A stretch of 64,000 nt of DNA from an uncultured Spirochaetaceae bacterium (GCA_964474355.1 CAYYSY010000312.1:1517-65516), one strand, 5' to 3'; numbered from the stretch's first letter, positions 1,777 to 16,159 are shown. Numbers and translations: made by a program. Notes: generated from the letters alone by a model not told the origin.

Positions 1777-2841
1777 ATGAACGTACGCGGCACCCTCGTC
1801 GCTCTCTTCGCGATCACGATTTCGTTGGCGGTGCTCGTCTTCTCGATCGGTGACGACGAATTCGAGCCGTCTGCGCCGTCACCGGCGGAGCTCGATCCGC
1901 TCGCGTTCGACGATGGCGAGCGCATCGAGCTCGAAGCCGGCTCGGCCTCGCTCACGTGCGGCTTCGACCACGACGCGCCGCGTCCGGCGGGTACACCGAT
2001 CGGCGGGGTCACGTACACGGAGCTGCGCGAGCGCGTACGCGGATGTGTCTCGACGCAGCTCGTCCACCTCTACTACACCGGCAGCATGAATGCCGGCGTG
2101 ACGAGGCTCGTCGCCGCAGTGACGAGCGCGGCGGTCGAGGTGGGCGTGCGCGGCCGGCTGCTCGACGCCGACTCGAAGGGGGGCGACATCGCGGCGGCCA
2201 TGCGGGCTGGCGAGCTGATGAGTGAGCACGGCTGGGCGATGTGGGTGGCGCGAGGCTCGTCGTGTTACAGCGCGTGCACGATGCTGCTCGCCGCAGCGCA
2301 CTACCGGGCGGTGCGAGGCGACGTCGGCATTCACCGCGTCTTCCCCGCGCACTCGACGGCGACGTCGCGCGAGGAGCTCGCGCACGATCTCGAGCGGATC
2401 CTCGGCCGGATCCGCGACTACCTGATGCGGCACGGCGTCAGCACACAGCTCGCCGACGCGATGATGACCGTGCCTGCCCGCGAGATCCGCGTGCTCACCG
2501 ACGCAGAGCTCGCGGGGTTTGGCCTCGTTGGCCAGAACGCCGCCCAGGCCGATCTCGAGCGCATTCAGCTCGTGCAGCGCTGCGGCATGGCGTTCGTGCG
2601 TCGCGCCGAGGCGTGGGAGCAGGCGCACGCCGAGGAGTGCGTCCGGCCCTACGTGCAGCGCGCGCGAGAGACGGACGTCTCACCGCGCCGCTTCGAGTGC
2701 GCCATCCTCGAGTGCGGCCGGAAGCTCGAGCCGCTCTTCGGCTTTCCCGATCCCGAGTGTCCGGCCGAGAGCCCGATCTTCCGGACGAGCAGCTGGCACT
2801 TCTGCGAAGACAACGAGCAGAGGCGCGCGCAGGCGCAGTAG
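1777..2841 (+). CDS. Membrane-anchored hypothetical protein, possibly the ClpP/crotonase-fold periplasmic family (COG3904-like)
   Basis: ATG at 1777 opens MNVRGTLVALFAITISLAVLVF (N-terminal TM). The segment GGDIAAAMRAGELM...GSSCYSACTMLLAAAHYRAVRGDVGIHRVF recalls COG3904-type proteins; this is from memory only. The Cys-rich C-terminus is of unknown function. Confidence 0.45.
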   Translation: MNVRGTLVALFAITISLAVLVFSIGDDEFEPSAPSPAELDPLAFDDGERIELEAGSASLTCGFDHDAPRPAGTPIGGVTYTELRERVRGCVSTQLVHLYYTGSMNAGVTRLVAAVTSAAVEVGVRGRLLDADSKGGDIAAAMRAGELMSEHGWAMWVARGSSCYSACTMLLAAAHYRAVRGDVGIHRVFPAHSTATSREELAHDLERILGRIRDYLMRHGVSTQLADAMMTVPAREIRVLTDAELAGFGLVGQNAAQADLERIQLVQRCGMAFVRRAEAWEQAHAEECVRPYVQRARETDVSPRRFECAILECGRKLEPLFGFPDPECPAESPIFRTSSWHFCEDNEQRRAQAQ

Positions 2842-2857
2842 TGCCGCCAGCCCGCGA

Positions 2858-4852
2858 TCAGAACACGCCGAACAGGCCGCCCCTCTCCTTCTTCGACTGT
2901 TCGAGCAGTGCGACGATCTCCGCATGACCGGCGGCGCCCGCGATCTGGGCGGGCGTGCGTCCACGGTCATCGCGTCGTGACGGATCCGCGCCGCGACGGA
3001 GCAGCACCTCCACCACGCCGAGATGGCCCGCCTCGGCAGCACGGATCAACGGAGTCGCTCGACCATCGCCGCGGGCCTCCACGTCGGCGCCGCGCGCGAG
3101 GAGCAGCTCGCAGACTTCGATGTGTCCCGCCGCGGCGGCGAGCAGGAGGGGCGTGTTGCCCGATGCCGATCGCAGCTCGACATCGGCGCCGCGCTCGATC
3201 AGCATGCGCGCCGTCTCGACGTCGCCCCGCCGCGCGGCGACGGCGAGCAGGCCGAGCCCGTCGCCGCAGCGCGTATCGGCGCCGGCGCCGCGGGCGAGCA
3301 GCAGCTCGACGATGTCGGTATGACCGTGCTGCAGCGCCTGGCAGACCGGCGCGCTTCGCCCCCGGCGCTTCGCCGCGCTCGCGCCGGCGTCGAGCAGAGC
3401 GCGGGTCGTTCGCACGTCGCCCGAGCGCACCGCGGCGTCCAGCGGCGTCGCGCCGCCGCCGTCCGCCCGCGCGAGATCCGCGCCCGCCTCGAGCAGCCGG
3501 CGTGCGGCGTCGACGTGTCCCTCCCGCGCGGCGTCGAAGAGCGGAGTTCGGCCGCGCGCGTCCCGCGCGTCGGCCGCCGCCCCCTTCTGCAGCAGGATCG
3601 CGGCGCAGTCGACGTGCCCGCCCCGGGCGGCCTCGTGGAGCGCGGTGCGGCGGCTGGCATCCCGCGCGTTCGGGTCGGCGCCGCGCTCGAGCAGGAGCGT
3701 CGCGATCTCGGCGTGTCCTCTCGCTGCCGCCAGCGCGAGCGCCGTCGCGCCATCTTCGTTCGTGCTCCGCACCGTGGCCGCGTTGCCGGCGAGCGCTCGA
3801 ACCTGCGCGGTGTTCCCACGCCAGGCGGCGATCTGGATGGGCGCCCAGCCCTCGAAGCCCGACCCCGACTCGGGCGTCGAGCTCGACGCGAGCCAGGCGG
3901 CGTCGTCGTCGCGCCTGGGCTTGCGCGTGTCCCGTGCGCCCGCGCGTCGAAGCAGCGAGACGACGTCGCGATGGCTCCCCGCCTTCGCCAGCTCGAGCGC
4001 CGAGCTCCCGGCGCGGTCCGTGCGTGCGACGTCGCTCTTCGCGCGGATCAGCAGTGCGACCACGTCGGCATGACCTCGCGAGGCCGCATTCATCAGCGGA
4101 GTGCGCCCGAAGGCATCGACCCGGTTCGGGTCGGCTCCGCCACGCAGCAGCGCCTGGGCGATGTCGACGTGGCCCGATCGGGCGGCGACGACCAGGGCCG
4201 GATCGCCGAACGCATCGGCCCTGTCGACCTTCGCGCCGCCCTCGAGGAGCGCCGTCACGACGTCCGGATGCTCCAGGCGCGTTGCCGTGTCGAGCGGCCG
4301 CCTGCCTCTTTGATCCTTCTGCTCGGCGTCGACGCCCGCTGCGAGCGCGACTCTCACGAGGCCCGGGTCGTTCGACACGACACCGCGCCAGAGATCGCTG
4401 CGGGCGAACTCCCGCGCCGCCTTGCGTTCGGTCGACAGGCGCTTCCGAGCAGGCTCGTAGCCCGCCCGAGCCGCCGATCGGATGAGCTTCATGCCTTCGT
4501 CGCGCTCTCCCGTCTGCCCCAGCAGCACGCCGAGGTTGTAGGCGGCGCGCGGGTCGCCCTTCTTCGCGGCGCCACGAAGCCAGCGCCGCGCACGGTCGAG
4601 GTCGCGCGGGACGACGACGCCGTTGCGATAGATGCTCGCGAGCCGGATCGCCGCATCGACGTCGCCCTTGCGCGCGAGCTTCTCGAGTCGCGAGATCGCG
4701 CCCCGCATGTCGCCCTCGCGGACGCGCTGGAGCGCCGGCTCGAGTGGCGGCGCAGCGGACACGTCGACGTCGGCATGGGCGAGCGTCCCGAGCAGCCAGC
4801 TGCCGACCAGAAGAGCGAGCGCCGCGCGACGCGCGAGATCAGGGCTCGCCAT
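2858..4852 (-). CDS. Secreted Sel1-repeat plus ankyrin-repeat protein (about 14 ANK repeats in two blocks)
   Basis: The ATG at 4852 was verified (cat at 4850-4852). Signal peptide: MASPDLARRAALALLVGSWLLGTLAHA. Sel1-like units include GDVDAAIRLASIYRNGVVVPRDLDRARRWL and GDPRAAYNLGVLL. There are many ANK units such as GRTPLMNAASRGHADVVALLI and GNTPLLLAAAAGHIEVCELLLARGADV. The start overlaps the upstream gene's stop by 14 nt. Confidence 0.85.
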   Translation of the reverse strand: MASPDLARRAALALLVGSWLLGTLAHADVDVSAAPPLEPALQRVREGDMRGAISRLEKLARKGDVDAAIRLASIYRNGVVVPRDLDRARRWLRGAAKKGDPRAAYNLGVLLGQTGERDEGMKLIRSAARAGYEPARKRLSTERKAAREFARSDLWRGVVSNDPGLVRVALAAGVDAEQKDQRGRRPLDTATRLEHPDVVTALLEGGAKVDRADAFGDPALVVAARSGHVDIAQALLRGGADPNRVDAFGRTPLMNAASRGHADVVALLIRAKSDVARTDRAGSSALELAKAGSHRDVVSLLRRAGARDTRKPRRDDDAAWLASSSTPESGSGFEGWAPIQIAAWRGNTAQVRALAGNAATVRSTNEDGATALALAAARGHAEIATLLLERGADPNARDASRRTALHEAARGGHVDCAAILLQKGAAADARDARGRTPLFDAAREGHVDAARRLLEAGADLARADGGGATPLDAAVRSGDVRTTRALLDAGASAAKRRGRSAPVCQALQHGHTDIVELLLARGAGADTRCGDGLGLLAVAARRGDVETARMLIERGADVELRSASGNTPLLLAAAAGHIEVCELLLARGADVEARGDGRATPLIRAAEAGHLGVVEVLLRRGADPSRRDDRGRTPAQIAGAAGHAEIVALLEQSKKERGGLFGVF

Positions 4853-6152
4853 GCAATGTCTCCATCTCGACGCCGACCTCGCGCAAGAACCCGAAAGGCA
4901 GCTCACCGCCAGCGCACACGATGATGGCGTCGTTCGGGATCGTCTCCTCGCCAGCCTCGACCTGCAAAGTGACGCTCGCGTCGTCGATGCGCGCGACGGT
5001 CGAAGTGCGCACCACGCGGATCCGCTCGGCGCGCTCACGCTCGTCGAGCTTGCTGCGGTTCGGCGGCTTGGCGCGCCCGAACGAATCGCCGCGGCACGAG
5101 AGCGTCACGACGGTCCCCGGCTCGTCGGCGAGCGAGATCGCGGCCTCGAGCGCGCTGTCGCCCGCACCCACGACCAGCACGTGGCGGCCCCGATGATCGG
5201 CCGGGTCTTCGAGCAGATAGGTGACCTTGGCGAGCTCTTCGCCCGCGGCGCCGAGACGGCGCGGCGAGCCTCGCCGGCCTATCGCGAGGACGACCGCGCG
5301 GCAGGTGAACTCACCGCTCGTCGTCGTCACGCGGAAGCCCGCGCCGTCGCTCTCGATCGCGCTCACCTTTTCTCCGTAGTCGATCTCGACTCTGGTCTCG
5401 CGCTCGGTGCGTTGCCACAGCTCGAGCAGCGCCTCCTTGGTCGTCTCGCGCAGCTTCACCTTGCCCACGAGCGGCAGCTCGACCGGCGCCGTGAGCACGA
5501 GCTTGCGGCGTGGATAGTGGGCGACCGCGCCGCCGAGCGTGTCCTGCTCGAGCGTGCGCGCGCGCAGGCCGTGCTGCTTCGCCGCGAGGGTGGCGGCGAA
5601 GCCCGCCGGGCCCGCGCCGACGATCACGACGTCGACCCGGTCGCCCTGGCCGATGCCGTCGAGGTCCCGCACCGAGTCGATCACCTGACGCCCCTGCTCG
5701 ATCGCGTTCCGGATGAGCCCCATGCCGCCGAGCTCGCCGACGATGAACAGGCCGGGCACGCTCGACTCGAAACGTGCATCGAGCACCGGGACCTCGACGC
5801 CGCGCTCCTTCGTGCCGATCACGAGCGTGATCGCGTCGAAGGGGCAGGCGTCGCGGCACGCGCCGTGCCCCACGCAGTTCGCCGCGTTCACGAGCACGGC
5901 CTTGCCTTCGAGCACCTGGAGCACGTCCGACTCGGGGCAGGCCGTGACGCACGCGCCGGAGCCCAGGCAGCGGATCGGGTCGATGAAGGGGTGGAGCGCC
6001 GCGGGCAGGTGGAGCCCTTCTTCGCGGGCGGACTCGATGGCCTCGCGAATGCGTGAGTCACGCCTGCGCCGACGCAGGACGAACCAGACGAACACGGCGA
6101 TCAGTGGGACGCCGTAGACGAGCCAGGCGATGAGTGAGGTCGAGTCCATCAT
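4839..6152 (-). CDS. Membrane-anchored ferredoxin-domain / FAD-NAD(P) pyridine-nucleotide-disulfide-type oxidoreductase
   Basis: ATG ATG at 6152/6149. An N-terminal TM (LIAWLVYGVPLIAVFVWFVL) is followed by RRRRRD, so the catalytic part should be cytoplasmic (positive-inside). Two ferredoxin-like motifs are CLGSGACVTACP and CVGHGACRDACP. Two Rossmann motifs are VVIVGAGPAGFAA and VLVVGAGDSALEAA. There are 4 nt between this start and the upstream outer-membrane-protein stop. Confidence 0.85.
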   Translation of the reverse strand: MMDSTSLIAWLVYGVPLIAVFVWFVLRRRRRDSRIREAIESAREEGLHLPAALHPFIDPIRCLGSGACVTACPESDVLQVLEGKAVLVNAANCVGHGACRDACPFDAITLVIGTKERGVEVPVLDARFESSVPGLFIVGELGGMGLIRNAIEQGRQVIDSVRDLDGIGQGDRVDVVIVGAGPAGFAATLAAKQHGLRARTLEQDTLGGAVAHYPRRKLVLTAPVELPLVGKVKLRETTKEALLELWQRTERETRVEIDYGEKVSAIESDGAGFRVTTTSGEFTCRAVVLAIGRRGSPRRLGAAGEELAKVTYLLEDPADHRGRHVLVVGAGDSALEAAISLADEPGTVVTLSCRGDSFGRAKPPNRSKLDERERAERIRVVRTSTVARIDDASVTLQVEAGEETIPNDAIIVCAGGELPFGFLREVGVEMETLHGEP

Positions 6153-6156
6153 CTGA

Positions 6157-8238
6157 TCAGAAGTCCCACCGGACGCCGAAGACGAGCGAGTAGGTGTTCT
6201 CGGTCGGCCGCGCGCTGTCGCCCACGCCTCCGCTCCACCCGTAGGCGAAGTCGAGGTCGAAGAAGAGGTCACGCCACCCGTAGTCGAGCCGCACGCGCGG
6301 GACGAAGTGGATCGAGTCGTCCTCCGTATTCTGGTACTCGAGCCGCAGGATCGGGTTCAGCCTGAGCCGGCGCCAGACCGGGAAGCGCCCCGTCGCCTCG
6401 AGTACGTAGCGGTCGGTGCGCCCGCCGTCGAAGATGCGGAGCCCGAAGCTCGTGACGTCGCCGTCCATCACGAGCGACCGCACACCGAGCTGGACGAAGT
6501 AGCCGAACTCGTAGCCGGTCCCGGGGAAGCCCTGGACGCCTCCGGATGTCTCCGTGCCGCCCAGGCTCATCGCGCTGAAGCTGCCGTTCACGTTCATGCG
6601 GTCGTGAAAGTCCCAGCGTGCGCCCGTCGAGAAGTTGGTCGCGGTCGCGCTGCGGTCCTTCGCGAGCTGCTTCAGCTGGTCCTCGCTGAACGTCGCCGCG
6701 AGCTCTTCGAGTGACGATGCGCCCTGGCCGATCAACGCGTTGCCCATCGTCACGATCGGGCTCTTGCGGTACTCCAGCAGGCCGTTGACGCTGACCGTCT
6801 CGGTGATCTGCTGGTTGCCGAGCAGGGTCGCGATGTTGACGACGTTGAAGTACGCGTCGTAGTCGAGGGTCCCCACGATCGTGCGCCCCGATCGGAGATG
6901 CCGGAGCTCAGCGCCGATCGCGCCACGGTACGTGAGGTTCGCCTCGTTCTGGTAGTTGCCGTAGAGCTCGACGTCGACGAGCGAGAAGACGTCGAGCACA
7001 CGAATGGCGCCGCCCACCTGATAGCGATCCGTGTTGATGTTGTCGGACGCGTAGCTCTCGAGCGGGAAGCCTCCGAGCACCTGCACATCGATGCGGTCGG
7101 TGGCGCGGTAGCCGAGTCGCGCGCCGTCGAAGCGGCCGATCACGCCCCCGTCTCCCCGTTGGCGTCCGACGTTGCCCCACCACCCACGCCCTCGCTCGGA
7201 GACCTCGACCAGGAGCAGGCTCAGCCGCGAGTCGCTGCCGATCGACTCCCTGCCGAAGTCGAGCCGCGTGCGGCCTGCCGCGCTCGTCTCGACCTCGAGC
7301 CGGTCGGTTCGCATGCGCGCCCGCACGAAGAGATCGGTGAACCACGACGAGTCGTAGAGCGTGTCGCCGAAGTCGTCGTCGAAGAAGCCCTGGGCGCGCG
7401 AGTAGTAGCTGAGGAGGCTTCCGTTCACGTCGAAGCGCGTGCCGCCCGAGCGCGCGCGGCCCGAAGTCCGCTCGGACGGGAGCGTGCTGGCGGTGGCCAG
7501 CGCCTGCAGCCGCTGGCGCACGCGCGGCGCGTGCTCGTGGTCGGGATAGCGCTCGAGGAAGCGTTCGTACTCCGCCTTGGCGTGAGCGCGCTGGCCGCTT
7601 CGCTCGCGCGCGAGTCCGAGGAGCTCGAGCGCTTCCGGGTGCGCCCCTGGCGCATTGAGGGACAGCACGCGGGTGCAGAGCTGAGCGGCGCGGGCCGGGT
7701 CTCCTTCTGCGAGCGCGCGGTTCGCGTCGGCGAGCAGGCCCGCGGCCGCCGCCTCGTAGCGGGGAGCGCCCGCCCCGCCCGCGTCGGGGATCCGGATCTC
7801 GAGCCGGTGCAGCTCCGAGCCCTGCACGATCTCGAAGGCCGTCTTGCGCGCGAACCGCACCTCGATGACCAGCCCGTGGTCGGCGGCCGAAGGCAACGTC
7901 TCGATCGATACGACGGGCGCCTTCGCGTCCGGAGCGAATGGTCGAAAGGTGTCGCCTGGGACGAGCCCGGCTTCGTCGGTGCGGCCGAGCCCGAGCGCGC
8001 GCAGCTCGATGCGCACGCTCTCGGCCGGCGCTCGCGGCGAGTGGCTCATGTAGCGGAGTGGCGCCGTGAAGCCGAGCTCGACGAGCCAGCCCGACTCGGT
8101 GCGCTTGCCGTCCACGGCGCGGACCGTCTTCGCGCCCTGCGCGTGCGCGAGGGTCGACCCTGTGACCAGCAGCAGGGTCACGATCGCACCCACGACGCGC
8201 CGCAGGTGCGCGGGATGGGCGCGCTTCGAAATGGACAT
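6157..8238 (-). CDS. Outer-membrane beta-barrel protein with an N-terminal AMIN-like domain and a TPR segment
   Basis: ATG at 8238 (cat 8236-8238). Signal peptide: VVGAIVTLLLVTGSTLAHAQG. AMIN-like segments: VRAVDGKRTESGWLVELGF...VRIELRALG and HGLVIEVRF...LHRLEIRIPD. TPR-like segment: ARAAQLCTRVLSLN...AKAEYERFLERYPDHEHAPRVRQRLQAL. About 420 aa of alternating-hydrophobic strands end in the outer-membrane-type terminus VFGVRWDF. Confidence 0.75.
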   Translation of the reverse strand: MSISKRAHPAHLRRVVGAIVTLLLVTGSTLAHAQGAKTVRAVDGKRTESGWLVELGFTAPLRYMSHSPRAPAESVRIELRALGLGRTDEAGLVPGDTFRPFAPDAKAPVVSIETLPSAADHGLVIEVRFARKTAFEIVQGSELHRLEIRIPDAGGAGAPRYEAAAAGLLADANRALAEGDPARAAQLCTRVLSLNAPGAHPEALELLGLARERSGQRAHAKAEYERFLERYPDHEHAPRVRQRLQALATASTLPSERTSGRARSGGTRFDVNGSLLSYYSRAQGFFDDDFGDTLYDSSWFTDLFVRARMRTDRLEVETSAAGRTRLDFGRESIGSDSRLSLLLVEVSERGRGWWGNVGRQRGDGGVIGRFDGARLGYRATDRIDVQVLGGFPLESYASDNINTDRYQVGGAIRVLDVFSLVDVELYGNYQNEANLTYRGAIGAELRHLRSGRTIVGTLDYDAYFNVVNIATLLGNQQITETVSVNGLLEYRKSPIVTMGNALIGQGASSLEELAATFSEDQLKQLAKDRSATATNFSTGARWDFHDRMNVNGSFSAMSLGGTETSGGVQGFPGTGYEFGYFVQLGVRSLVMDGDVTSFGLRIFDGGRTDRYVLEATGRFPVWRRLRLNPILRLEYQNTEDDSIHFVPRVRLDYGWRDLFFDLDFAYGWSGGVGDSARPTENTYSLVFGVRWDF

Positions 8239-8379
8239 CTCTTCTCGAACGATCAGCATCGGCCAGCCGCCAGTGGCGCGAAAGCCCGCCGCACACGTGG
8301 GCGACGACAAAAGGGGTTCACGAATATGCGTCGCCTCGCCGAAGTATGAGCGTGTCGAACGTCACCATCCGAGGCGCCC

Positions 8380-8405
8380 TTCCGAACGATGTAATTCCGA
8401 ACGAT
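8380..8405. promoter_or_regulatory. Direct repeat TTCCGAACGAT-GTAA-TTCCGAACGAT in the divergent intergenic region (candidate operator)
   Basis: Exact 11-mers lie at 8380-8390 and 8395-8405. A third core, CGAACGAT, lies at 8246-8253, and TCGAACGT lies near 8355. The region has locally lower GC. It sits between the outer-membrane-protein operon (minus) and the cytochrome operon (plus). Confidence 0.3.
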
Positions 8406-8581
8406 CTGCTGCGGATGAGCCCGGATCCTCGAGTGGGGAATTCTGCCCCGCCTCCGCCCCGATCCGCGTCGTATGCAGAAGGCCGCATGCATTGACTCTC
8501 GATCTCGACACCGATGAGCGAGCCACCGATGCAGCGGCGTCGAAAGGGCGCTGTACTCCCACCGGCAGCTCACACGCGCCG

Positions 8582-9514
8582 ATGATGGGGATGGACAGGT
8601 TGGACGAAGAGGCGGCCCGAGTCGGGTCGGGCACCGGACGCGATCGCAGCGAGCGCACGAAGGGCGCAGCCCGCACGCGGGCGCCGGGTGCCGGACCGCG
8701 CGTGGCGCGCGCCATGCTGCTGGGGCCGGTGGGCCTGGCTTGCGCCGTCGCCATCGCCTTCGGCTGGCGCACGCGCGACGAGTACTACGTGGTGCCCGAC
8801 GAAGGCCTCGGCTATGCGCTCGGCATCGTCGGGCTCGTGATGATGCTCCTGCTGCTGCTCTACTCCGTCCGCAAGCGCTGGTCGGTGCTCCGCAACGCCG
8901 GGCCCCTGCGTCACTGGTTCCACATACACATGGCGCTCGGCCTGCTCGGGCCGACCGCGATCCTCTACCACTCGAACTTCAGCCTGGGCTCGCTCAATGC
9001 GAACGTCGCGCTGCTCTGCATGCTGACGGTGAGCGCGAGTGGAATCGTCGGACGCTTCATCTACACGCGGATCCACTACGAATTTCGCGGCCGGGTCGCG
9101 AGCCTCGCGGATCTTCGCGCGGAGGCGCAGGCGGAGGGCGCGGTGCTGGCCGAGGCGACGCGTGTCGCGCCGCGGATCTCCGAGGTGCTCGACGCGCACC
9201 GCGCGTGGGCCTTTCGCGGCCGCAGCCTGCCGGGCCGCCTCGCGATGATCACGGTCGTCGGCATGCGTGGGCGCGTGGCGCGCCGCCGGGCGCTGCGCGC
9301 GTGGCGCCGATCGGCATCCTCGAACCGCGCGACCTCGCCTGCAGCGCACGACGTGCGCCGGGCCGTCAAGGCGCAGATCGCGGCCATTCGGCGCGTGGCG
9401 GAGTTCTCGACGTACGAGCGCTTCTTCGCCCTGTGGCACGCGCTCCATCTCCCCTTCTGCGTCGGTCTCTATGCGGCCGCGACGGTGCACGTCGTCGCGG
9501 TCCACATGTACTGA
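8582..9514 (+). CDS. Polytopic membrane protein (about 5 TM) with His-rich helices; possible b-type haem or quinol-interacting subunit
   Basis: The start is uncertain: ATG at 8582, 8591 or 8714 (MLLGPVGLACAVAIAFGW). TM helices include GYALGIVGLVMMLLLLLYSV, HWFHIHMALGLLGPTAILYHS, NVALLCMLTVSASGIVGRFIY and FALWHALHLPFCVGLYAAATVHVVAVHMY. It lies directly upstream of two multihaem cytochromes (23-nt gap). The N-terminal part of the 8066 ORF is Arg/Ser-rich and is not used. Confidence 0.6.
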   Translation: MMGMDRLDEEAARVGSGTGRDRSERTKGAARTRAPGAGPRVARAMLLGPVGLACAVAIAFGWRTRDEYYVVPDEGLGYALGIVGLVMMLLLLLYSVRKRWSVLRNAGPLRHWFHIHMALGLLGPTAILYHSNFSLGSLNANVALLCMLTVSASGIVGRFIYTRIHYEFRGRVASLADLRAEAQAEGAVLAEATRVAPRISEVLDAHRAWAFRGRSLPGRLAMITVVGMRGRVARRRALRAWRRSASSNRATSPAAHDVRRAVKAQIAAIRRVAEFSTYERFFALWHALHLPFCVGLYAAATVHVVAVHMY

Positions 9515-9536: not shown

Positions 9537-11144
9537 ATGCGATTCGCGGGACGGCACGGTGAGACCGGGTGTGCGACGCCGTGGCGCTCGCTGATCCTCG
9601 CGGCGGTCTTGCTCCTGAGCGCCACGCAGGCGACGGCCGCGGGGCTGGAGGATCTCGTGTCGCCCGGCGATCTGATCGCCGCTCACGAGCGCGAGACGAA
9701 GGAGTGCGGTGACTGTCACGAGCGCTTCGATCGAAGCTCGCAGAGCAGGCTGTGCCTCGTCTGTCACGAGGAGGTCGCGGATGACGTCCAGCGCGGTCGA
9801 GGACTCCATGGGCGACTCGGCGCGGGCGACGGCAGCGAGTGCCGGGTCTGCCACACCGACCACAAGGGCGAGGCCGCGGACATCGTGGGTCTCGTGAAGG
9901 AGTCGTTCGATCATCGCCGCACGGACTTTGCGCTCGAAGGGCTGCACGGCTCGGTGCCGTGCGCCGACTGCCACGCGAAGGGCGAGCGCTACCGGGAGGC
10001 GGAGCCCGGCTGCGCGACCTGTCACGGCGACGCCGATCCGCATCGCGGCCAGCTGGGCGACGATTGCCAGCAATGCCACACGCCGCGCGACTGGACGTCG
10101 GTCGAGTTCGATCATGCGTCGACGAAGTTCCCTCTCGAGGCGGGCCACGCCGACGCGGCGTGCGCCTCGTGTCATCCGAGGGGACGCTTCGAGGCCGTGT
10201 CGACCGACTGCGTGTCGTGTCATCGCGTCGACGACGCGCACCGCGGACGGCTCGGCAACGCGTGCGGCGACTGTCACGATCCGTCGGGCTGGGACCGGAC
10301 GGTCTTCGACCACGACCGCAAGACGCGCTTCGCGTTGCGGGGCGCTCACGCCCGCATCGACTGTCGCGCGTGCCACGTCTCGGAGCCGAGCGAGGTCGAG
10401 CTGTCGATGGACTGTGTGAGCTGCCATCGCCTCGACGACGATCACCGCGGCGCGCGCGGCAAGCAATGCGGCGACTGTCACCGCACGCAGTCGTGGTCGC
10501 GCAGCCACTTCGACCACACACGAGACGCGAGCTTCGCGCTGCACGGAGCCCACGCCAGCGTCGCGTGCGAGCTCTGCCACACCGGCAGCCCTGCGACGGC
10601 AAAGACGCCCACGCGCTGTGTGGAATGTCACGAGACCGAAGACGTGCATCGCGGTACCCTCGGCGCCGACTGCGGGCGGTGTCACACGAACGCGAGCTGG
10701 TCGCGCCGGGTAACCTTCGATCACGACTTCACCGACTTCCCGCTGCTGGCCCTCCACCAGCTCGCCTCGTGTGAGGACTGCCACGCGAGCCACCGCTTCG
10801 CCGACGCCGCGACCGACTGCATCGGCTGCCACGCGCGCGACGACGCCCACGAGCGCCGGCTTGGGAACGACTGCGCGCGGTGCCACAATCCGAACGGGTG
10901 GCGCTTCTCGCAGTTCGAACACGAGAGAGAGACGGACTTCGCGCTGACCGGTGGACACGAGTCGCTCGAGTGCGTCGCCTGCCACGTGAAGCCCACGTCG
11001 GGGCCGTCGACGAAGCTCTCCGCGTCGCCGCGGTGTGCCACGTGCCATCTGAGCGACTCGCCGCACGATGACGCGTACGGGCGGGACTGCCAGCGCTGCC
11101 ACGTCGTCGAGTCGTGGGAGAGGACGAAGCAGGGGGTGCGATGA
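9537..11144 (+). CDS. Multihaem c-type cytochrome, 21 CXXCH motifs (7 x c7-like trihaem modules)
   Basis: The ATG at 9537 was verified. Signal peptide: WRSLILAAVLLLSATQATAAG. I counted 21 CXXCH motifs: CGDCH, CLVCH, CRVCH, CADCH, CATCH, CQQCH, CASCH, CVSCH, CGDCH, CRACH, CVSCH, CGDCH, CELCH, CVECH, CGRCH, CEDCH, CIGCH, CARCH, CVACH, CATCH, CQRCH. The recurring module is CxxCH..DxHxGxLGxxCxxCHxxxxWxxxxFDHxxTxFxLxGxHxxxxCxxCH. Confidence 0.92.
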   Translation: MRFAGRHGETGCATPWRSLILAAVLLLSATQATAAGLEDLVSPGDLIAAHERETKECGDCHERFDRSSQSRLCLVCHEEVADDVQRGRGLHGRLGAGDGSECRVCHTDHKGEAADIVGLVKESFDHRRTDFALEGLHGSVPCADCHAKGERYREAEPGCATCHGDADPHRGQLGDDCQQCHTPRDWTSVEFDHASTKFPLEAGHADAACASCHPRGRFEAVSTDCVSCHRVDDAHRGRLGNACGDCHDPSGWDRTVFDHDRKTRFALRGAHARIDCRACHVSEPSEVELSMDCVSCHRLDDDHRGARGKQCGDCHRTQSWSRSHFDHTRDASFALHGAHASVACELCHTGSPATAKTPTRCVECHETEDVHRGTLGADCGRCHTNASWSRRVTFDHDFTDFPLLALHQLASCEDCHASHRFADAATDCIGCHARDDAHERRLGNDCARCHNPNGWRFSQFEHERETDFALTGGHESLECVACHVKPTSGPSTKLSASPRCATCHLSDSPHDDAYGRDCQRCHVVESWERTKQGVR

Positions 11145-12244
11145 AGATGCGCGACCACGTGAATCCCCCGACGATCATCGCCCTGGCAATGGCGCTCGCC
11201 CTGGTCTGGGCACTCTCGATGGAACGGCGCGCCGGGGCGGAGGAGGGCAGGGAGACCGACAGCCGCGCCGAGTCGGAGATCGTCTTCGACGAGCGCTTCG
11301 ACCACGTCGGCACGCGCTTCATCCTGACCGGCTCGCACGAAGGCGTCGCGTGCGAGAGCTGCCACGCGATGGGCGTCTTCCGCGGAACGCCGATGTCGTG
11401 CGGCTGGTGCCACGACGGCTCGGGCACGCGGGCCGAGTCGGGCAAGCCGCTCAGCCACGTTCCGACCTCGAACCAGTGCGACGACTGCCACACGACGTTC
11501 ACGTGGCTGGAGGTCCGCTTCGAGCACAGCGGGGTGACGGGCGCGTGCACGAGCTGCCACAACGACGTCCAGGCCGAGGGCAAGCCGCTGGGGCACGTCG
11601 TCACGAACGAGCAGTGCGATTTCTGTCACAACACGTTCGTGTGGCAGTCCATCCGCGTCGATCACTCGAACATCACGGCACCCTGCTCGAGCTGTCACAA
11701 CAACGTCGACGCGACGGGCAAGCCGATGGATCACATCGTCACGAGCTCGGAGTGCGACGCTTGTCACTCGACCCGCGCCTGGGTCCCTGCGACGTTCGAC
11801 CACGCGGGCATCGTGAGCGACTGCGCGAGGTGTCACAACGACGTCGATGCGTCGGGCCTGCCGGATGGGCACTTCATCACGATGCAGGACTGCAGCGCGT
11901 GCCACACGACGAACGCCTGGCGCCCGGACACCTTCCGGCACATGTCGGCGAACTATCCGGGTGACCACGCGCGTGATCTCGATTGCACCGAGTGTCATCC
12001 GGGCAACAGCGAGATGGTCGTCTATACCGACGATCCGAACCTGGCGCCGTATTGCGCGGGCTGCCACAAGAACGACTTCGATCCCGATCCGCACAAGCAG
12101 CACGAGAATCCGGATCACGACTACACGGCGGACGAGCTCGCCGACTGCACCGGCGCGTGCCACATCTACACCGACTCGAGCCTCACTGTGATCAAGGAGG
12201 CGCGCAGCGGCGAGCACCGCGTGAGCGACCGCGACTTCGACTAG
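11141..12244 (+). CDS. Multihaem c-type cytochrome, 11 CXXCH plus one CX3CH motif
   Basis: The ATG at 11141 overlaps the previous stop (ATGA). Signal or anchor: PPTIIALAMALALVWALS. Motifs: CESCH, CGWCH, CDDCH, CTSCH, CDFCH, CSSCH, CDACH, CARCH, CSACH, CTECH, CAGCH, plus CTGACH. The repeating dihaem unit is CxxCHNxVxAxGKPxxHxxTxxxCxxCHxTxxWxxxxFDH. Confidence 0.9.
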   Translation: MKMRDHVNPPTIIALAMALALVWALSMERRAGAEEGRETDSRAESEIVFDERFDHVGTRFILTGSHEGVACESCHAMGVFRGTPMSCGWCHDGSGTRAESGKPLSHVPTSNQCDDCHTTFTWLEVRFEHSGVTGACTSCHNDVQAEGKPLGHVVTNEQCDFCHNTFVWQSIRVDHSNITAPCSSCHNNVDATGKPMDHIVTSSECDACHSTRAWVPATFDHAGIVSDCARCHNDVDASGLPDGHFITMQDCSACHTTNAWRPDTFRHMSANYPGDHARDLDCTECHPGNSEMVVYTDDPNLAPYCAGCHKNDFDPDPHKQHENPDHDYTADELADCTGACHIYTDSSLTVIKEARSGEHRVSDRDFD

Positions 12245-13158
12245 GCGTTGCCCACGAGCTCGAGTGCGCCCCGTGCGCCGGCGTGGCCGCCGTCGGGCAG
12301 CAGCCGCGTCTCCATGCCGAAGCTGGCGCCGACGCGGACCAGGATCTTCTGGAGCGCCGGGTTGTCGTTCAGCGTGCTGCCGCCGAAGACCCAGCGCGGC
12401 GTCTGCGTCATGGCCGAGACGCCGGCGCAGACGAGCGCCACGTTCTCGGCGACGAGGCTCATCACGCCCACCGCGAGGTCCTCGCGGCTCGGGGCGCCGG
12501 CCTCGCCGCGTCCCTCGGCGAGCCAGCGGCTGAGCTTTCCGAACGCCGACGCGGTCGTCTCGCCCGGCAGGGCGATCTCGCCCGCTTCGTAGATGTCCGC
12601 GACGAGCAGGTCGACGCGCGATGGATCGCCGCGACCGGCCAGCTCGCAGAGCTCGGCGAAGCTCTCGCAGCCGGTCAGCGCCACGCCGAGGCCGAGCACG
12701 GTGCCGCCGCCGAGCGCGGTGCCGCCGACACGCAGCACGTCGCCGTCGGCGACGCGCATGACCGATGTGCCCGTGCCGAGCGAGATCAGCAGATAGGGTG
12801 CGCTCTCGTCGAAGCCCTCGCCGTCCGCGTCGCCCAGCTGGGCGTGGGCGCCCGCGCCCCAGGCCGCGAACTCCTGGAAGTGGCCGGTGCCCGTGGCGCC
12901 ACGCTCGGCGCAGCGGGCCTCGATGACCTTCGCGCCACAGCCCGTGAGCCCGACCCGGTCGGGCTGGAGCCGCGCGACCTCGTCCATGACGTCGGCGACG
13001 TGACCGGAGAGCAGCGTCTCGTAGCGGACGTCGCCCGCGTCGGTTCGTACCGCGAGCTTGGCCAGCGTCGCGCCCGCGTCGATGCCGACGGTCGTGCCGC
13101 CATTGCCTCGAAAGTCGTTTTCTTGCTGGGGATTCAATGGGTTACACTCGCCCGCCAA
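12241..13158 (-). CDS. coaW: Type II pantothenate kinase-like (fumble/CoaW) ASKHA-fold ATPase
   Basis: Motifs: TVGIDAGATLAKL (phosphate-1), LLISLGTGTSV, GGTALGGGTVLGLG. TTG at 13158 is the only in-frame start upstream of the first motif. Its stop overlaps the cytochrome stop on the opposite strand (CTAG at 12241-12244). Confidence 0.55.
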   Translation of the reverse strand: MAGECNPLNPQQENDFRGNGGTTVGIDAGATLAKLAVRTDAGDVRYETLLSGHVADVMDEVARLQPDRVGLTGCGAKVIEARCAERGATGTGHFQEFAAWGAGAHAQLGDADGEGFDESAPYLLISLGTGTSVMRVADGDVLRVGGTALGGGTVLGLGVALTGCESFAELCELAGRGDPSRVDLLVADIYEAGEIALPGETTASAFGKLSRWLAEGRGEAGAPSREDLAVGVMSLVAENVALVCAGVSAMTQTPRWVFGGSTLNDNPALQKILVRVGASFGMETRLLPDGGHAGARGALELVGNA

Positions 13159-13169
13159 TTGGAACTGCC

Positions 13170-15119
13170 ATGTATACCGCGTTCTACGGACTTCGCGAGA
13201 AGCCGTTCAGCCTGACACCGAATCCCCGCTTCCTCTTCCTGGCCGAGAGCCACCGGGAGGCGCTCGCCCATCTGCTGTATGGGCTCGAGCAGGGGGAGGG
13301 GTTCATCGTCGTGTCGGGCGAGGTCGGCACGGGCAAGACGACCATCTGCCGCACCCTGCTCGAGCGCCTCGGCGTCGAGACCGAGCTCGCCTTCCTCTTC
13401 AATCCGTCGGGCACTGCCGACGAGATGCTGCAGAGCGTGAACGAGGAGTTCGGGCTGCCGGCGACGGGGCTCTCGCGGCGCGAGCTGCTCTCGCAGCTGA
13501 ACCGGTTCCTGCTCGACAAGAATCGCGAGTCGAAGCGCGTCGTGCTGATCATCGACGAGGCGCAGAACCTGTCCACCACGACGCTCGAGCAGGTGCGTCT
13601 GCTCTCGAACCTCGAAACGACGACGTCGAAGCTGATCCAGATCATCCTGCTCGGTCAGCCCGAGCTCGGCGAGAAGCTCGACAGCGAAGAGCTGCGGCAG
13701 CTGCGCCAGCGCATCGGCGTGCGCTGGCAGCTCTGTCCCCTGAGCCAGGCGGAGACGGGGCAGTACGTGCGGCACCGGCTCCGCGTAGCCGCGGGCGCCG
13801 ACCGCAGCGCGCTCTTCAGCGATGGCGCGCTTGCCGAGGTGCACAAGCGCACGGGTGGTGTGCCGCGGCTCGTGAACGTGCTCTGTGATCGCGCTTTGCT
13901 CGCGGGCTATGCGGCCGAGGCCGCGCAGATCGACGCCGAGCTCGTGAAGCAGGCGGCGCGCGAGATTCGCGATCTGCAGGGCGAGGCGTTCGGCAGCAAG
14001 GGGCGCCGCCGTCGTGCTCGACATGCGTGGTGGCTCGCTCCGCTTGCGGCCGTGTTGGCGGCGCTCGCCGTGGGCGCCGGCCTCTGGCTCGGGCGCGGCG
14101 ACGGGGGCAGGGCGATCCGAAGCCTGATCGACGGTGTGGGCTCGGAAGGGCCGCCTGCAGTGTCTGCGCCCGCGGCGCCGGCTCGCACGGCACGGTCCTC
14201 CGAGCTGCCCCCGGTCTCGGCGCGCCCGCCGGGCGCCGAGACGTCCGCACCCCGGGCCGGACGCGATCCGGCGAGTGCATTGCGTGGCGACGCCGTTGCG
14301 ATCCAAACGGGACACGACGCGTCCTCCGCGGCCGTCTTCGATGCCGAGTGGCAGGCGAGCCGTGACGCGCGAGGCCCGCGGCCCGAGGCGCCAGCCAACG
14401 GATTCCCCGGCAGCGAAGCGGATGCGCTGCGTGACGACGCCGGGGATGGCAGCTTCCTCGCGCACTTGCTCGCCGAGGTGCCGGCGTCGACGACCCGGGC
14501 ACTCGCCGTGACCGAGATCCTCCACGTCTGGGGCAAGCCGGCGGAGGGCGTATCGGGGGCGACCGAGGCGCTGGCGCTCGCGCGGCTGCGCGACGCAGGG
14601 CTCGCCGTGCACACGGTGCTCGCGAGCTCGCTCGAAGAGCTCGCCCTGCTCGATCATCCGGCGCTCATCGAGGTGCGCGACGGCGAGGGCGAGACGCACT
14701 GGCTGGCGCTCGTCGAGCTGCGGCCGTCGGTCGCGTTCGTGGGGGGCGTCGTCGACCGCGGGCCGATCGGCGTGTCGCACGAGGCGCTCGAGGGCCACTT
14801 CGAAGGGCGTGCCTACGTCGCGTGGTCGCCCGGCTTCGAGCTCCTTGGCGCGCCGATGCTGAGCGCGGGCTCCCAGGGCATGCCCGTGCGCTGGGTGCAG
14901 CAGGCACTCGTCGAGCTCGGATATCTCAGCGCCGTCGCGGCGGTGCCGGACGACGGGAGCGCGGTGTACGACGCGGCCACGCGCCGGGGCATCGAGCGCT
15001 TCCAGCGTGCCCAGGGCCTGCGGCAGGACGGCATCACCGGTCCGATCACGCTCATGCGCCTCGGCGATGCGCTCGGCCGCAACGCACGCCCGCATCTGCG
15101 CGCGGGGGGCGCGGGATGA
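13170..15119 (+). CDS. gspA: GspA/ExeA-like AAA ATPase with a C-terminal peptidoglycan-binding domain
   Basis: N-terminus: MYTAFYGLREKPFSLTPNPRFLF. Walker A: SGEVGTGKTT. Walker B: VVLIIDEAQNL. A TM helix (WWLAPLAAVLAALAVGAGLWL) is present. The C-terminal PG_binding_1-like segment is VRWVQQALVELGYL...IERFQRAQGLRQDGITGPIT. Confidence 0.85.
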   Translation: MYTAFYGLREKPFSLTPNPRFLFLAESHREALAHLLYGLEQGEGFIVVSGEVGTGKTTICRTLLERLGVETELAFLFNPSGTADEMLQSVNEEFGLPATGLSRRELLSQLNRFLLDKNRESKRVVLIIDEAQNLSTTTLEQVRLLSNLETTTSKLIQIILLGQPELGEKLDSEELRQLRQRIGVRWQLCPLSQAETGQYVRHRLRVAAGADRSALFSDGALAEVHKRTGGVPRLVNVLCDRALLAGYAAEAAQIDAELVKQAAREIRDLQGEAFGSKGRRRRARHAWWLAPLAAVLAALAVGAGLWLGRGDGGRAIRSLIDGVGSEGPPAVSAPAAPARTARSSELPPVSARPPGAETSAPRAGRDPASALRGDAVAIQTGHDASSAAVFDAEWQASRDARGPRPEAPANGFPGSEADALRDDAGDGSFLAHLLAEVPASTTRALAVTEILHVWGKPAEGVSGATEALALARLRDAGLAVHTVLASSLEELALLDHPALIEVRDGEGETHWLALVELRPSVAFVGGVVDRGPIGVSHEALEGHFEGRAYVAWSPGFELLGAPMLSAGSQGMPVRWVQQALVELGYLSAVAAVPDDGSAVYDAATRRGIERFQRAQGLRQDGITGPITLMRLGDALGRNARPHLRAGGAG

Positions 15120-16159
15120 GCACGATCCTCAAGGCGCTCAAGAAGCTCGAGCACGACAAGCAGGTCGACGCCGCGCAAAGCCGCGCCCACGATCCGCTCG
15201 CGCCCGCCCCCGAGCCGATGGTGGCGCCCAGGCCAGAGCCCGAGGGCGAGTGGCGGGGACTGTGGGGGCTGATCGCCGGAGTCGCCGCCCTGTTCTGTGT
15301 GGGTGTCGGGTTCGGCGTCTATACCCTTTCGCGCGACGAGGGCGGCTCTGCCTCGACGCCCGCCGTGGCGGCTGCGCCCGGCGCGGGTGGAGGCATGGTG
15401 CTCGCGGCGCCGGCCCGGCCGGACTTCCACCGCATGCCGCCGGTCGCGGGCGTCGAGCCGGTGGGCGCCGGCTCGGGCGCAACGTCTCCTCGTTCTTCAC
15501 AGCCGACGCGGCTCGCTGCGGCCTCGTCGGCGCCAGACCCGTGGGAGGAGGCGGCCACGGCCACGACCACGAATTCGGCGTCACCCGACGCGGCCGCCCG
15601 CCCGCCGGACCGGCCTGCGACGCCCGTCGTCGCTGCCCCGCCTCCGACTCGGGCTCCGTCCAGCCCGACGCCGGCCGCATCCACGGCGCCGCCCGCTGCG
15701 TCGCGCACGGCCCCCTCGCCGGTCGCCCCTTCGACGCAGGCGTCGCGCGATGTGCCGGAGCCGTCGGGCGTACCCATCGCCGCGCTTCCCGTCATCGACC
15801 TGCCCGAGGAAGAGCCGCCTGCGGCCGTGTCGGCGCCCCCCGAGCCCGCGGCGTCCGTTCCCGCCGAGCCCGCGCCGGAGTCGAGCGCCGCGGCGGTCGC
15901 AGAGGTGCCGGCTCGTCCCGGTCTCGGGAACGTCGTCGTGAGTGACGCGGCCGAGCGCGTCGACGTGAAGGTGCTGAAGACGGTCTGGCACCCGAAGCCC
16001 GACCGGCGCTCGGCTCGGCTCGAGCTCTCGAATCGCGAGAGCCCCGTCGAGGTCCACGAGTCGGATCTGGTGGAGGGCTACGTGGTGGAGGAGATCACGC
16101 CTTCGAAGGTCCTGCTCTCGAAGGACGGCGTGACGCTCACGCGACGCGTAGGGGACTGA
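15116..16159 (+). CDS. gspB: GspB/ExeB-like protein (N-terminal MSxILxALKK box, TM, Pro/Ala-rich linker, C-terminal GspB-type domain)
   Basis: The ATG at 15116 overlaps the gspA stop (ATGA). Sequence: MSTILKALKKLEHDKQ; TM helix GLIAGVAALFCVGVGFGVYTL; C-terminus VKVLKTVWHPKPDRRSARLEL...VEGYVVEEITPSKVLLSKDGVTLTRRV. Confidence 0.7.
   Translation: MSTILKALKKLEHDKQVDAAQSRAHDPLAPAPEPMVAPRPEPEGEWRGLWGLIAGVAALFCVGVGFGVYTLSRDEGGSASTPAVAAAPGAGGGMVLAAPARPDFHRMPPVAGVEPVGAGSGATSPRSSQPTRLAAASSAPDPWEEAATATTTNSASPDAAARPPDRPATPVVAAPPPTRAPSSPTPAASTAPPAASRTAPSPVAPSTQASRDVPEPSGVPIAALPVIDLPEEEPPAAVSAPPEPAASVPAEPAPESSAAAVAEVPARPGLGNVVVSDAAERVDVKVLKTVWHPKPDRRSARLELSNRESPVEVHESDLVEGYVVEEITPSKVLLSKDGVTLTRRVGD

Follow-up and report, generated by a model that had tools for sequence, protein, structure and literature searches.

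A conserved iron-sulfur flavoprotein and a secreted ankyrin-repeat protein as predicted partners of a PCC3-type porin-cytochrome cluster

A stretch of 64,000 nucleotides (nt) from an uncultured Spirochaetaceae bacterium (GCA_964474355.1 CAYYSY010000312.1:1517-65516; G+C content about 71%), hereafter called the window, carries two divergent groups of three genes. Those on the minus strand (positions 2,858 to 8,238) encode an outer-membrane barrel protein, a membrane-anchored iron-sulfur flavoprotein and a secreted protein with Sel1 and ankyrin repeats, and those on the plus strand encode an inner-membrane protein (IMP) and two multihaem cytochromes c. Together the six genes form a PCC3 porin-cytochrome cluster with a lineage-specific gene order, and their flavoprotein and ankyrin members are conserved partners of PCC3 that are new relative to the searchable literature. 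Here, we describe the genes, the conservation of their linkage and the electron path that they may form. The features concerned are the following.

2858..4852, minus strand: secreted Sel1 protein with about 14 ankyrin repeats (ANK), 664 amino acids (aa); Pfam, full-length homologues
4839..6152, minus strand: membrane-anchored iron-sulfur flavoprotein (FLAV), predicted to face the cytoplasm, 437 aa; Pfam, NCBIfam, family alignment, charge bias around the transmembrane helix
6157..8238, minus strand: PCC3-type outer-membrane porin (barrel protein), 693 aa; open reading frame, TPR hidden Markov models (HMMs), AlphaFold2 model, tblastn homology
8239..8581, no strand: divergent intergenic region between the two operons; sequence
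8582..9514, plus strand: PCC3 IMP, 310 aa; five transmembrane helices (TM1 to TM5), two WX3HX13H motifs and SGxxG
9537..11144, plus strand: 21-haem periplasmic multihaem cytochrome c; 21 CxxCH motifs, cytochrome c7/c3 HMMs
11141..12244, plus strand: second multihaem cytochrome c; 11 CxxCH motifs and one CxxxCH, position of the PCC3 'extracellular' cytochrome

The three minus-strand genes are co-directional, with a 4-nt gap (6153-6156) between the stop of the barrel gene and the start of the flavoprotein gene and a 14-nt overlap (4839-4852) between the end of the flavoprotein gene and the start of the Sel1/ankyrin gene, exactly as the original prediction for this stretch had stated. The Sel1/ankyrin gene is translationally coupled to the flavoprotein gene. 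The control region of about 340 bp that the same prediction assigned to both operons measures 343 bp, provided that the IMP starts at 8582. For the second cytochrome a GTG at 11114 is an alternative start.

PCC3 has been described as a predicted four-gene, putative porin-cytochrome c complex and was already proposed as a trans-envelope conduit in 2017 (He, Barco, Emerson & Roden 2017, PMC5566968). Its parts are a porin, two multihaem cytochromes, of which one is extracellular and the other periplasmic with a median of 21 haems, and an IMP. This IMP, about 300 aa in length, has five transmembrane helices, with the motif SGxxG in TM4 and a WX3HX13H motif in each of TM3 and TM5 (PMC5566968). Known examples are Slit_0867-0870 and Slit_1446-1449 of S. 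lithotrophicus ES-1 (PMC5566968; Hoover et al. 2023, PMC9900912), for which haem counts of 17/21 and 24/28 have been published. One of the genomes searched here (G391) contains two clusters, with haem counts of 17 and 21 in one and of 24 and 28 in the other, and because these counts match the two published clusters we infer that it is S. lithotrophicus ES-1. The window agrees with the published description in its porin, its IMP and its periplasmic cytochrome. Its IMP of 310 aa has five transmembrane helices, WX3HX13H at residues 112-130 and 285-303 and SGxxG (SGIVG) at residues 153-157, and its periplasmic cytochrome has 21 CxxCH motifs in 535 aa, equal to the published median. The second cytochrome has a haem count within the published range of 10-35, and its extracellular site is predicted from gene position. 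The barrel gene, with about 22 modelled strands, is the divergent neighbour of the multihaem cytochromes, and its product is homologous to both PCC3 porins of the ES-1-type genome (108 and 89 bits, tblastn), which identifies it by homology as a PCC3 porin. It is because of these IMP motifs, the 21- and 11-haem cytochromes and the porin homology that the six genes are assigned to PCC3. The combination, which the original prediction had called unusual, is thus that of a widespread cluster, and the window locus is not unique but one more PCC3 member. Two partners are new, the ankyrin protein and the conserved flavoprotein, which in some cases occurs as a fusion: neither was found linked to PCC3 in the searchable PCC3 literature, and searches of that literature for porin-cytochrome combined with ankyrin, or for locus tags on either side of Slit_0867, gave no result.

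The barrel protein has a signal peptide ending in AHAQG and the C-terminus GVRWDF, that is, a terminal Phe. Its sole domain matched in Pfam and NCBIfam is a TPR region at residues 173-245. In an AlphaFold2 model built from an alignment of 27 homologues (mean predicted local distance difference test (pLDDT) score 86.3; strands by DSSP), the signal peptide is followed by an all-beta sandwich (39-151), five TPR-type helices (159-249) and 22 strands (268-692) with a helical insert (498-528). The original prediction of a beta-barrel with a C-terminal Phe and AMIN-like and TPR modules thus holds for the TPR and the terminal Phe, but is not confirmed for the AMIN-like module: AMIN Pfam models gave no match at E<=10 on residues 37-159 and none in the 27 homologues, and the resemblance is at most structural, residing in the modelled beta-sandwich. 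A SPOR domain takes the N-terminal position in 12 of the 27 homologues. Foldseek against the PDB matched the modelled barrel to generic barrels alone (MOMP, the FimD usher, Occ/OprD and general porins; query-normalised template-modelling score <= 0.34). BcsC, PgaA and MtrB are absent among the listed top 50 of 395 matches, in which AlgE appears merely as a generic barrel at ranks 37 and 48. When PDB sequences were searched with a profile, the matches were confined to the TPR part (CpoB, BamD, NrfG). The original prediction would have been weakened by a barrel that fell in with polysaccharide export or another unrelated family; neither search places it with BcsC, PgaA or any other solved family.

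The flavoprotein contains two Fer4 motifs and a Pyr_redox_3 domain (Pfam) and belongs to a large family, with at least 8000 database proteins matched and 53-76% identity between phyla. Its closest solved relative is YpdA/Bdr (7a7b, 1e-38), followed by ferredoxin-NADP+ reductases of the thioredoxin reductase (TrxR)-like type (to 1e-19), and it scores 148.2 bits with the NCBIfam model TIGR04018 (YpdA), under the cut-off of 339.9. The single transmembrane helix is preceded by no Lys or Arg and followed by two to eight of them in all 17 aligned family members, and the protein has no twin-arginine signal. Since the basic residues lie only after the helix and this signal is missing, the catalytic part is predicted to face the cytoplasm, with the helix oriented N-out/C-in, in agreement with the cytoplasm-facing NAD(P)/FAD (flavin adenine dinucleotide) enzyme on one transmembrane helix that had been proposed from the sequence. 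The iron-sulfur domain (residues 62-104) comes directly after the anchor helix and would therefore lie at the membrane surface. It carries the motifs CxxSxxCxxxCP and CxxHxxCxxxCP, in that order; the His of the second is invariant (17/17), and the second Cys position of the first is occupied by Ser in this lineage but keeps its Cys in most others. These motifs suggest one His-ligated cluster and, in this lineage, possibly a 3Fe-4S cluster. In the YpdA family the catalytic Cys lies within the first GGGPCG motif. The present protein has no redox-active CxxC, and the motif aligned to GGGPCG reads GAGPAG in all 17 members, with Ala at the position of the catalytic Cys; it is for these two reasons that we predict a dehydrogenase and not a disulfide reductase. 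Its FAD motif PGxFxAGE (residues 128-156), which is C-terminal in thioredoxin reductases and YpdA, precedes the first GxGxxG (176-184), and the protein ends where YpdA has this motif still to come. This suggests a circularly permuted flavin domain, which would place the iron-sulfur domain beside the flavin.

These properties of the barrel and the flavoprotein bear on a different account of the locus, in which the barrel would be a polymer exporter like BcsC or PgaA, the flavoprotein a YpdA-type disulfide reductase for low-molecular-weight thiols, and their position beside cytochrome genes an accident. A TPR region followed by a C-terminal barrel is indeed the architecture of BcsC and PgaA, and YpdA/Bdr is the best solved relative of the flavoprotein, but the model has about 22 strands rather than 16, there are no matches to BcsC, PgaA or AlgE beyond those to generic barrels, and the genes nearby encode cytochromes and no synthase. 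The flavoprotein, for its part, stays far below the YpdA cut-off, has Ala for the catalytic Cys and adds a membrane anchor and an iron-sulfur domain. Considering also that the linkage to cytochromes is kept across phyla and gene orders, we regard this account as highly improbable.

The conservation of the linkage was assessed on 82 loci fetched via the flavoprotein (49-72% identity, several phyla), each of which was searched for the other five proteins, and on a subset of 37 well-flanked loci with at least 5 kb upstream and at least 3 kb downstream. Among the well-flanked loci, the IMP is present in 35, the 21-haem cytochrome in 33 and the second cytochrome in 31, and the porin and the ankyrin protein in 25 each. 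Five gene orders occur. In the usual one, porin, second cytochrome, 21-haem cytochrome and IMP are read leftwards, in this sequence along the map, and flavoprotein and ankyrin protein follow rightwards; the others are that of the window (porin before flavoprotein), a convergent, a fully co-directional and one more variant. In most bacteria the porin gene comes after the cytochromes, and in this Myxococcota lineage it has moved to the head of the flavoprotein operon. The original prediction asked for the six genes to be conserved together in relatives. They are: the window's six-gene order recurs in 10 further genomes, mostly confirmed Myxococcota (12 loci fetched, two genomes sampled twice), and the linkage is kept in the four other orders across Gamma-, Beta- and Alphaproteobacteria. 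The Myxococcota-type order of the window also appears in records labelled Spirochaetales (L060/L106, G218) and Gammaproteobacteria (L007). In the genome collection L060 is assigned to the same taxonomic order as the window, so that its Spirochaetales label is probably wrong.

Co-occurrence follows the same pattern. Of 81 Gallionella-family genomes, 39 encode the IMP, 41 the flavoprotein and 39 both, and none has the IMP alone; the flavoprotein gene lies divergently at 158-931 nt from 36 of the 46 IMP copies. In 301 Myxococcota genomes 16 IMP orthologues were found, 15 accompanied by a flavoprotein orthologue, 13 of these within 8 kb. A whole-genome search for the IMP covered 11 loci, nine without an adjacent cytochrome cluster or IMP or with too short a flank and two reference loci, and the IMP is encoded somewhere in the genome for 10 of the 11. 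In the ES-1-like genome the flavoprotein gene (L100:3940-5232, G391:C1:851939-853231) is convergent with the porin gene of the first cluster at a distance of 40 nt. The same genome has a second flavoprotein copy standing alone (L102:4854-6149), and its second PCC3 cluster has no flavoprotein nearby.

A closer association is seen in other families of Myxococcota, where a more distant flavoprotein and an IMP-like domain are encoded in one reading frame, in both orders.

L086:492-2708, minus strand: IMP-flavoprotein fusion, 738 aa
L087:5017-7350, plus strand: IMP-flavoprotein fusion
L088:8274-10475, minus strand: IMP-flavoprotein fusion
L093:5662-7866, plus strand: IMP-flavoprotein fusion
L089:7856-10153, minus strand: flavoprotein-IMP fusion, 765 aa
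L090: flavoprotein-IMP fusion
L091:7345-9675, minus strand: flavoprotein-IMP fusion
L092:7682-10078, plus strand: flavoprotein-IMP fusion

Each fusion gene adjoins a cytochrome related to the 21-haem one. Fusions of both orders match the IMP profile with an hhalign probability of 98.9% and have Fer4 and Pyr_redox_3 (Pfam) in their other half, and many such proteins of 730-750 aa are called as single genes in public annotation. The two orders are consistent with the predicted topologies, a five-helix IMP with N-in/C-out and a flavoprotein helix with N-out/C-in: in the IMP-flavoprotein order, the flavoprotein's own helix returns the chain to the cytoplasm. The two independent fusions are strong comparative evidence that flavoprotein and IMP would work as one unit.

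The IMP itself is predicted to lie N-in/C-out, because its N-terminus and the insert between TM4 and TM5 are rich in Arg. An AlphaFold2 model of it has a pLDDT of 83.9. The four His of its two motifs are invariant in 31 sequences; their pairs H116/H289 and H130/H303 lie at the two ends, inner and outer, of TM3 and TM5. In NOX-type proteins, two stacked haems b are held by His pairs in TM3 and TM5. The conserved spacing is what points to two putative haems b in the IMP, and the same point on its His arrangement was made by He et al. (PMC5566968). Searches with the IMP for relatives gave no Pfam match at E<=10, no PDB sequence match and a best Foldseek E value of 0.29.

The third gene of the flavoprotein operon encodes one Sel1 repeat and a series of ankyrin repeats, of which 14 LLxxGA repeat ends were counted. 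The protein has full-length homologues in other phyla (46% and 30% identity), which are about 655-695 aa long and begin with a hydrophobic N-terminal signal in all 35 cases inspected; the secreted protein with about 14 ankyrin repeats that had been proposed is thus well founded. It is present in loci of Gamma- and Alphaproteobacteria and Myxococcota, overlapping the flavoprotein gene by the same 14 nt in 15 loci, and is absent from those of Betaproteobacteria, Woeseiaceae and Hyphomonadaceae among the loci fetched. The protein could be a periplasmic scaffold or an assembly chaperone of the haem wire. About 20 of the 35 homologues end in a basic-hydrophobic tail such as KKxLFGIF-COOH, and the window sequence ends in GGLFGVF (2858-2890). 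TPR domains often bind C-terminal peptides, so that docking of the ankyrin tail on the TPR domain of the porin can be put forward as a testable guess.

The structure of the genes, the families they belong to, their conserved linkage, their phyletic co-occurrence, the natural fusions and the topology are shown above; from these we infer a cofactor content, a set of contacts, a direction of electron flow and a role for the ankyrin protein. Anchored in the inner membrane by its one N-out/C-in helix, the flavoprotein would lie on the cytoplasmic side and dock on the five-helix IMP. Electrons would pass from NAD(P)H to FAD, through the two iron-sulfur clusters and across the membrane via two bis-His haems b in the IMP, and onward from these haems to the 21-haem periplasmic wire and to the porin with the second cytochrome. 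The assembly would act as a two-component NOX or ferric reductase extended over the diderm envelope, exporting cytoplasmic reducing power to an outside acceptor independently of quinones, with the secreted Sel1/ankyrin solenoid as periplasmic accessory of the wire, either as a scaffold or as an assembly chaperone. We consider it probable, with some reserve, that the three minus-strand genes are parts of such a PCC3-type system, that is, of a wire fed by NAD(P)H in the manner of NOX and ferric reductases, serving a quinone-independent outward route and aided by an ankyrin accessory. The original prediction that the six genes comprise the parts of a trans-envelope electron conduit is supported by their co-conservation and by the classification of the barrel. 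The wider generalisation is more tentative: PCC3 with its flavoprotein may be a quinone-independent NAD(P)H:extracellular-acceptor oxidoreductase spanning the whole diderm envelope. Such a system would be the bacterial equivalent of the NOX and ferric reductases of eukaryotes, although its components are unrelated to theirs, and the periplasmic ankyrin solenoid would serve the 21-haem wire as rail or assembly factor.

Outward flow is favoured on three grounds. Electrons from Fe(II) would have to go steeply uphill to reach NAD(P)+, and their inward movement would be opposed by the membrane potential; transcriptomics of S. lithotrophicus ES-1 found both PCC3 clusters down-regulated on Fe(II); and heterotrophic carriers of the cluster are common (Bradyrhizobium, Woeseiaceae, Steroidobacteraceae, Myxococcota). 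One supplementary file of the ES-1 transcriptome paper lists Slit_0867-0870 and does not list the adjoining flavoprotein gene. The same observations bear on the converse proposal that electrons enter from outside Fe(II) or minerals through porin and cytochromes to the IMP, and pass from there to the quinone pool or, via the flavoprotein, to NAD(P)+. PCC3 is found in, and common among, neutrophilic iron oxidisers, and a haem chain is reversible in principle. An inward conduit would nevertheless have to overcome the energetic barrier that established bioenergetics sets, would have to be reconciled with the response of both ES-1 clusters to Fe(II) and with the heterotrophic lineages, and, if it were a quinone-linked oxidase, would have no need of strict pairing or fusion with a dehydrogenase of the NAD(P)H type. 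We therefore judge inward flow unlikely.

Another function is suggested by the neighbours of the flavoprotein gene. Homologues of the dedicated cytochrome-maturation genes ccmF, ccmG, ccmH or ccmI lie near it in 16 of the 82 loci. In Alphaproteobacteria the order is ccmF-G-H-I-flavoprotein, co-directional and with ccmI abutting the flavoprotein gene (ccmFGHI at L031:5760-10004; likewise L050, L064, L069, L071 and L085), and in Bradyrhizobium sp. STM 3843 it is flavoprotein-ankyrin-ccmFGHI (L054:7497-11765). Flavoprotein, IMP and ankyrin protein could, accordingly, serve the biogenesis or upkeep of the giant cytochromes instead of respiration. The first two would pass reductant across the membrane, so that haem iron or CxxCH thiols stay reduced while haem is attached, and the apo-cytochrome would be held by the Sel1/ankyrin protein. 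CcmI and NrfG, which are apocytochrome chaperones, are TPR-like, and so are Sel1 repeats; in one Myxococcota genome (G198) the ankyrin protein is retained with no flavoprotein gene next to it. Against such a role, the IMP gene is the first of the cytochrome operon in nearly every locus, ccm genes accompany the locus far less regularly than IMP and flavoprotein accompany each other, and other multihaem systems mature without a module of this kind. The ankyrin protein as a replacement for CcmI was considered and rejected, since the two occur together in L027, L032 and L054 and hence do not replace each other. The ccmFGHI neighbours may merely mean that giant cytochromes bring their own haem lyase, and a role in biogenesis appears quite unlikely to us.

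Several points weigh against the NAD(P)H-fed outward wire that we prefer, the ccm neighbourhood just described among them. In the Gallionella family, 8 of the 46 IMP copies, mostly those of second clusters, have no flavoprotein nearby. The Myxococcota genome G198 has the order IMP, 21-haem cytochrome, second cytochrome, porin, ankyrin protein, all read leftwards along the map, with no adjacent flavoprotein (L097, G198:C2:2172000-2191000), and its sole flavoprotein homologue (42% identity) is encoded on another replicon. The co-occurrence statistics given above ignore shared ancestry. A NOX or ferric reductase domain (FRD) fold was tried for the IMP and rejected, as no match to NOX, STEAP, MsrQ, cytochrome b561 or Ferric_reduct (PF01794) was obtained. 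The conduit function of the PCC3 components is itself a prediction, and sequence cannot give the direction of electron flow, which we take to be outward on the grounds listed above.

A scan of positions 2400-8700 for a sigma-70-like promoter or a terminator gave nothing beyond chance, such a scan being uninformative at 71% G+C. Two exact TTCCGAACGAT boxes (window 8380-8405) are not conserved in the divergent regions of 10 relatives whose genes are arranged as in the window, and a shared operator in the divergent region was rejected, since neither an TTCCGAACGAT box nor any 8-mer recurs in the intergenic regions of these relatives. Beyond the cytochrome operon (window 12241-16159) lie a pantothenate-kinase-like gene and an ExeA/GspA-like ATPase gene with a partner gene; the pantothenate-kinase-like and ExeA/GspA-like genes do not recur downstream in L005, the only related locus that was inspected on this side.

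PCC3 is among the most widespread predicted porin-cytochrome systems; its carriers are iron oxidisers, symbionts of plants and animals, and bacteria of sediments. As late as 2026 it was cited as a candidate for an iron oxidase of unknown metabolic link. A conserved, sometimes fused iron-sulfur flavoprotein of the NAD(P)H type gives this link to metabolism a concrete and testable form, and points to flow in the opposite direction. If this is true, electrons would be exported by a cluster that currently serves as a marker for iron oxidation, the environmental-genomic reading of PCC3 genes would change, and a new, quinone-independent route of extracellular electron transfer would be added.

Among known systems, PCC3 of ES-1 is the closest, with homologues of the porin, the 21-haem cytochrome, the second cytochrome and the IMP as in the window. 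The published PCC3 comprises four genes and has been discussed as a possible quinone-linked iron oxidase, whereas in the window the porin gene lies in a divergent operon together with the flavoprotein and ankyrin genes. A published precedent for an iron-sulfur partner of such an IMP is PCC4 subgroup II, in which an iron-sulfur cluster gene lies directly upstream of the IMP gene and both are annotated as a single gene in one genome (PMC5566968). However, the IMP and porin of PCC4 subgroup II belong to other families, and its iron-sulfur protein is of the Fer4_11 type, with no flavin domain mentioned.

The MtrCAB and MtoAB systems resemble the locus in having a barrel gene beside those of periplasmic and outer multihaem cytochromes, read as an outer-membrane wire. 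MtrB, with 26 strands, is not among the listed fold matches to the window barrel, and in Mtr the inner-membrane entry is the quinol dehydrogenase CymA and the cytochromes are decahaems. With YpdA/Bdr (7a7b) and the TrxR-like ferredoxin-NADP+ reductases, the flavoprotein has the FAD/NAD(P)H two-Rossmann fold in common (1e-38 to 1e-19), but it differs in lacking the catalytic Cys and CxxC, in its transmembrane anchor and domain with two iron-sulfur clusters, and in its probable permutation.

In mechanism, the nearest parallel would be to NOX/FRE proteins and the Fre-MsrQ pair, in which a cytoplasmic NAD(P)H flavoenzyme feeds two transmembrane haems b and reduces an outside acceptor. The fused relatives of IMP and flavoprotein bear a likeness to NOX in their six transmembrane helices followed by a C-terminal dehydrogenase. 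Unlike NOX, FRE and MsrQ, the IMP has no detectable ferric-reductase-domain homologue and has only the His spacing in common with them; the dehydrogenase is TrxR-like with two iron-sulfur clusters and not FNR-like; and the acceptor would be the 21-haem wire, where in NOX, FRE and MsrQ it is O2, Fe(III) or MsrP.

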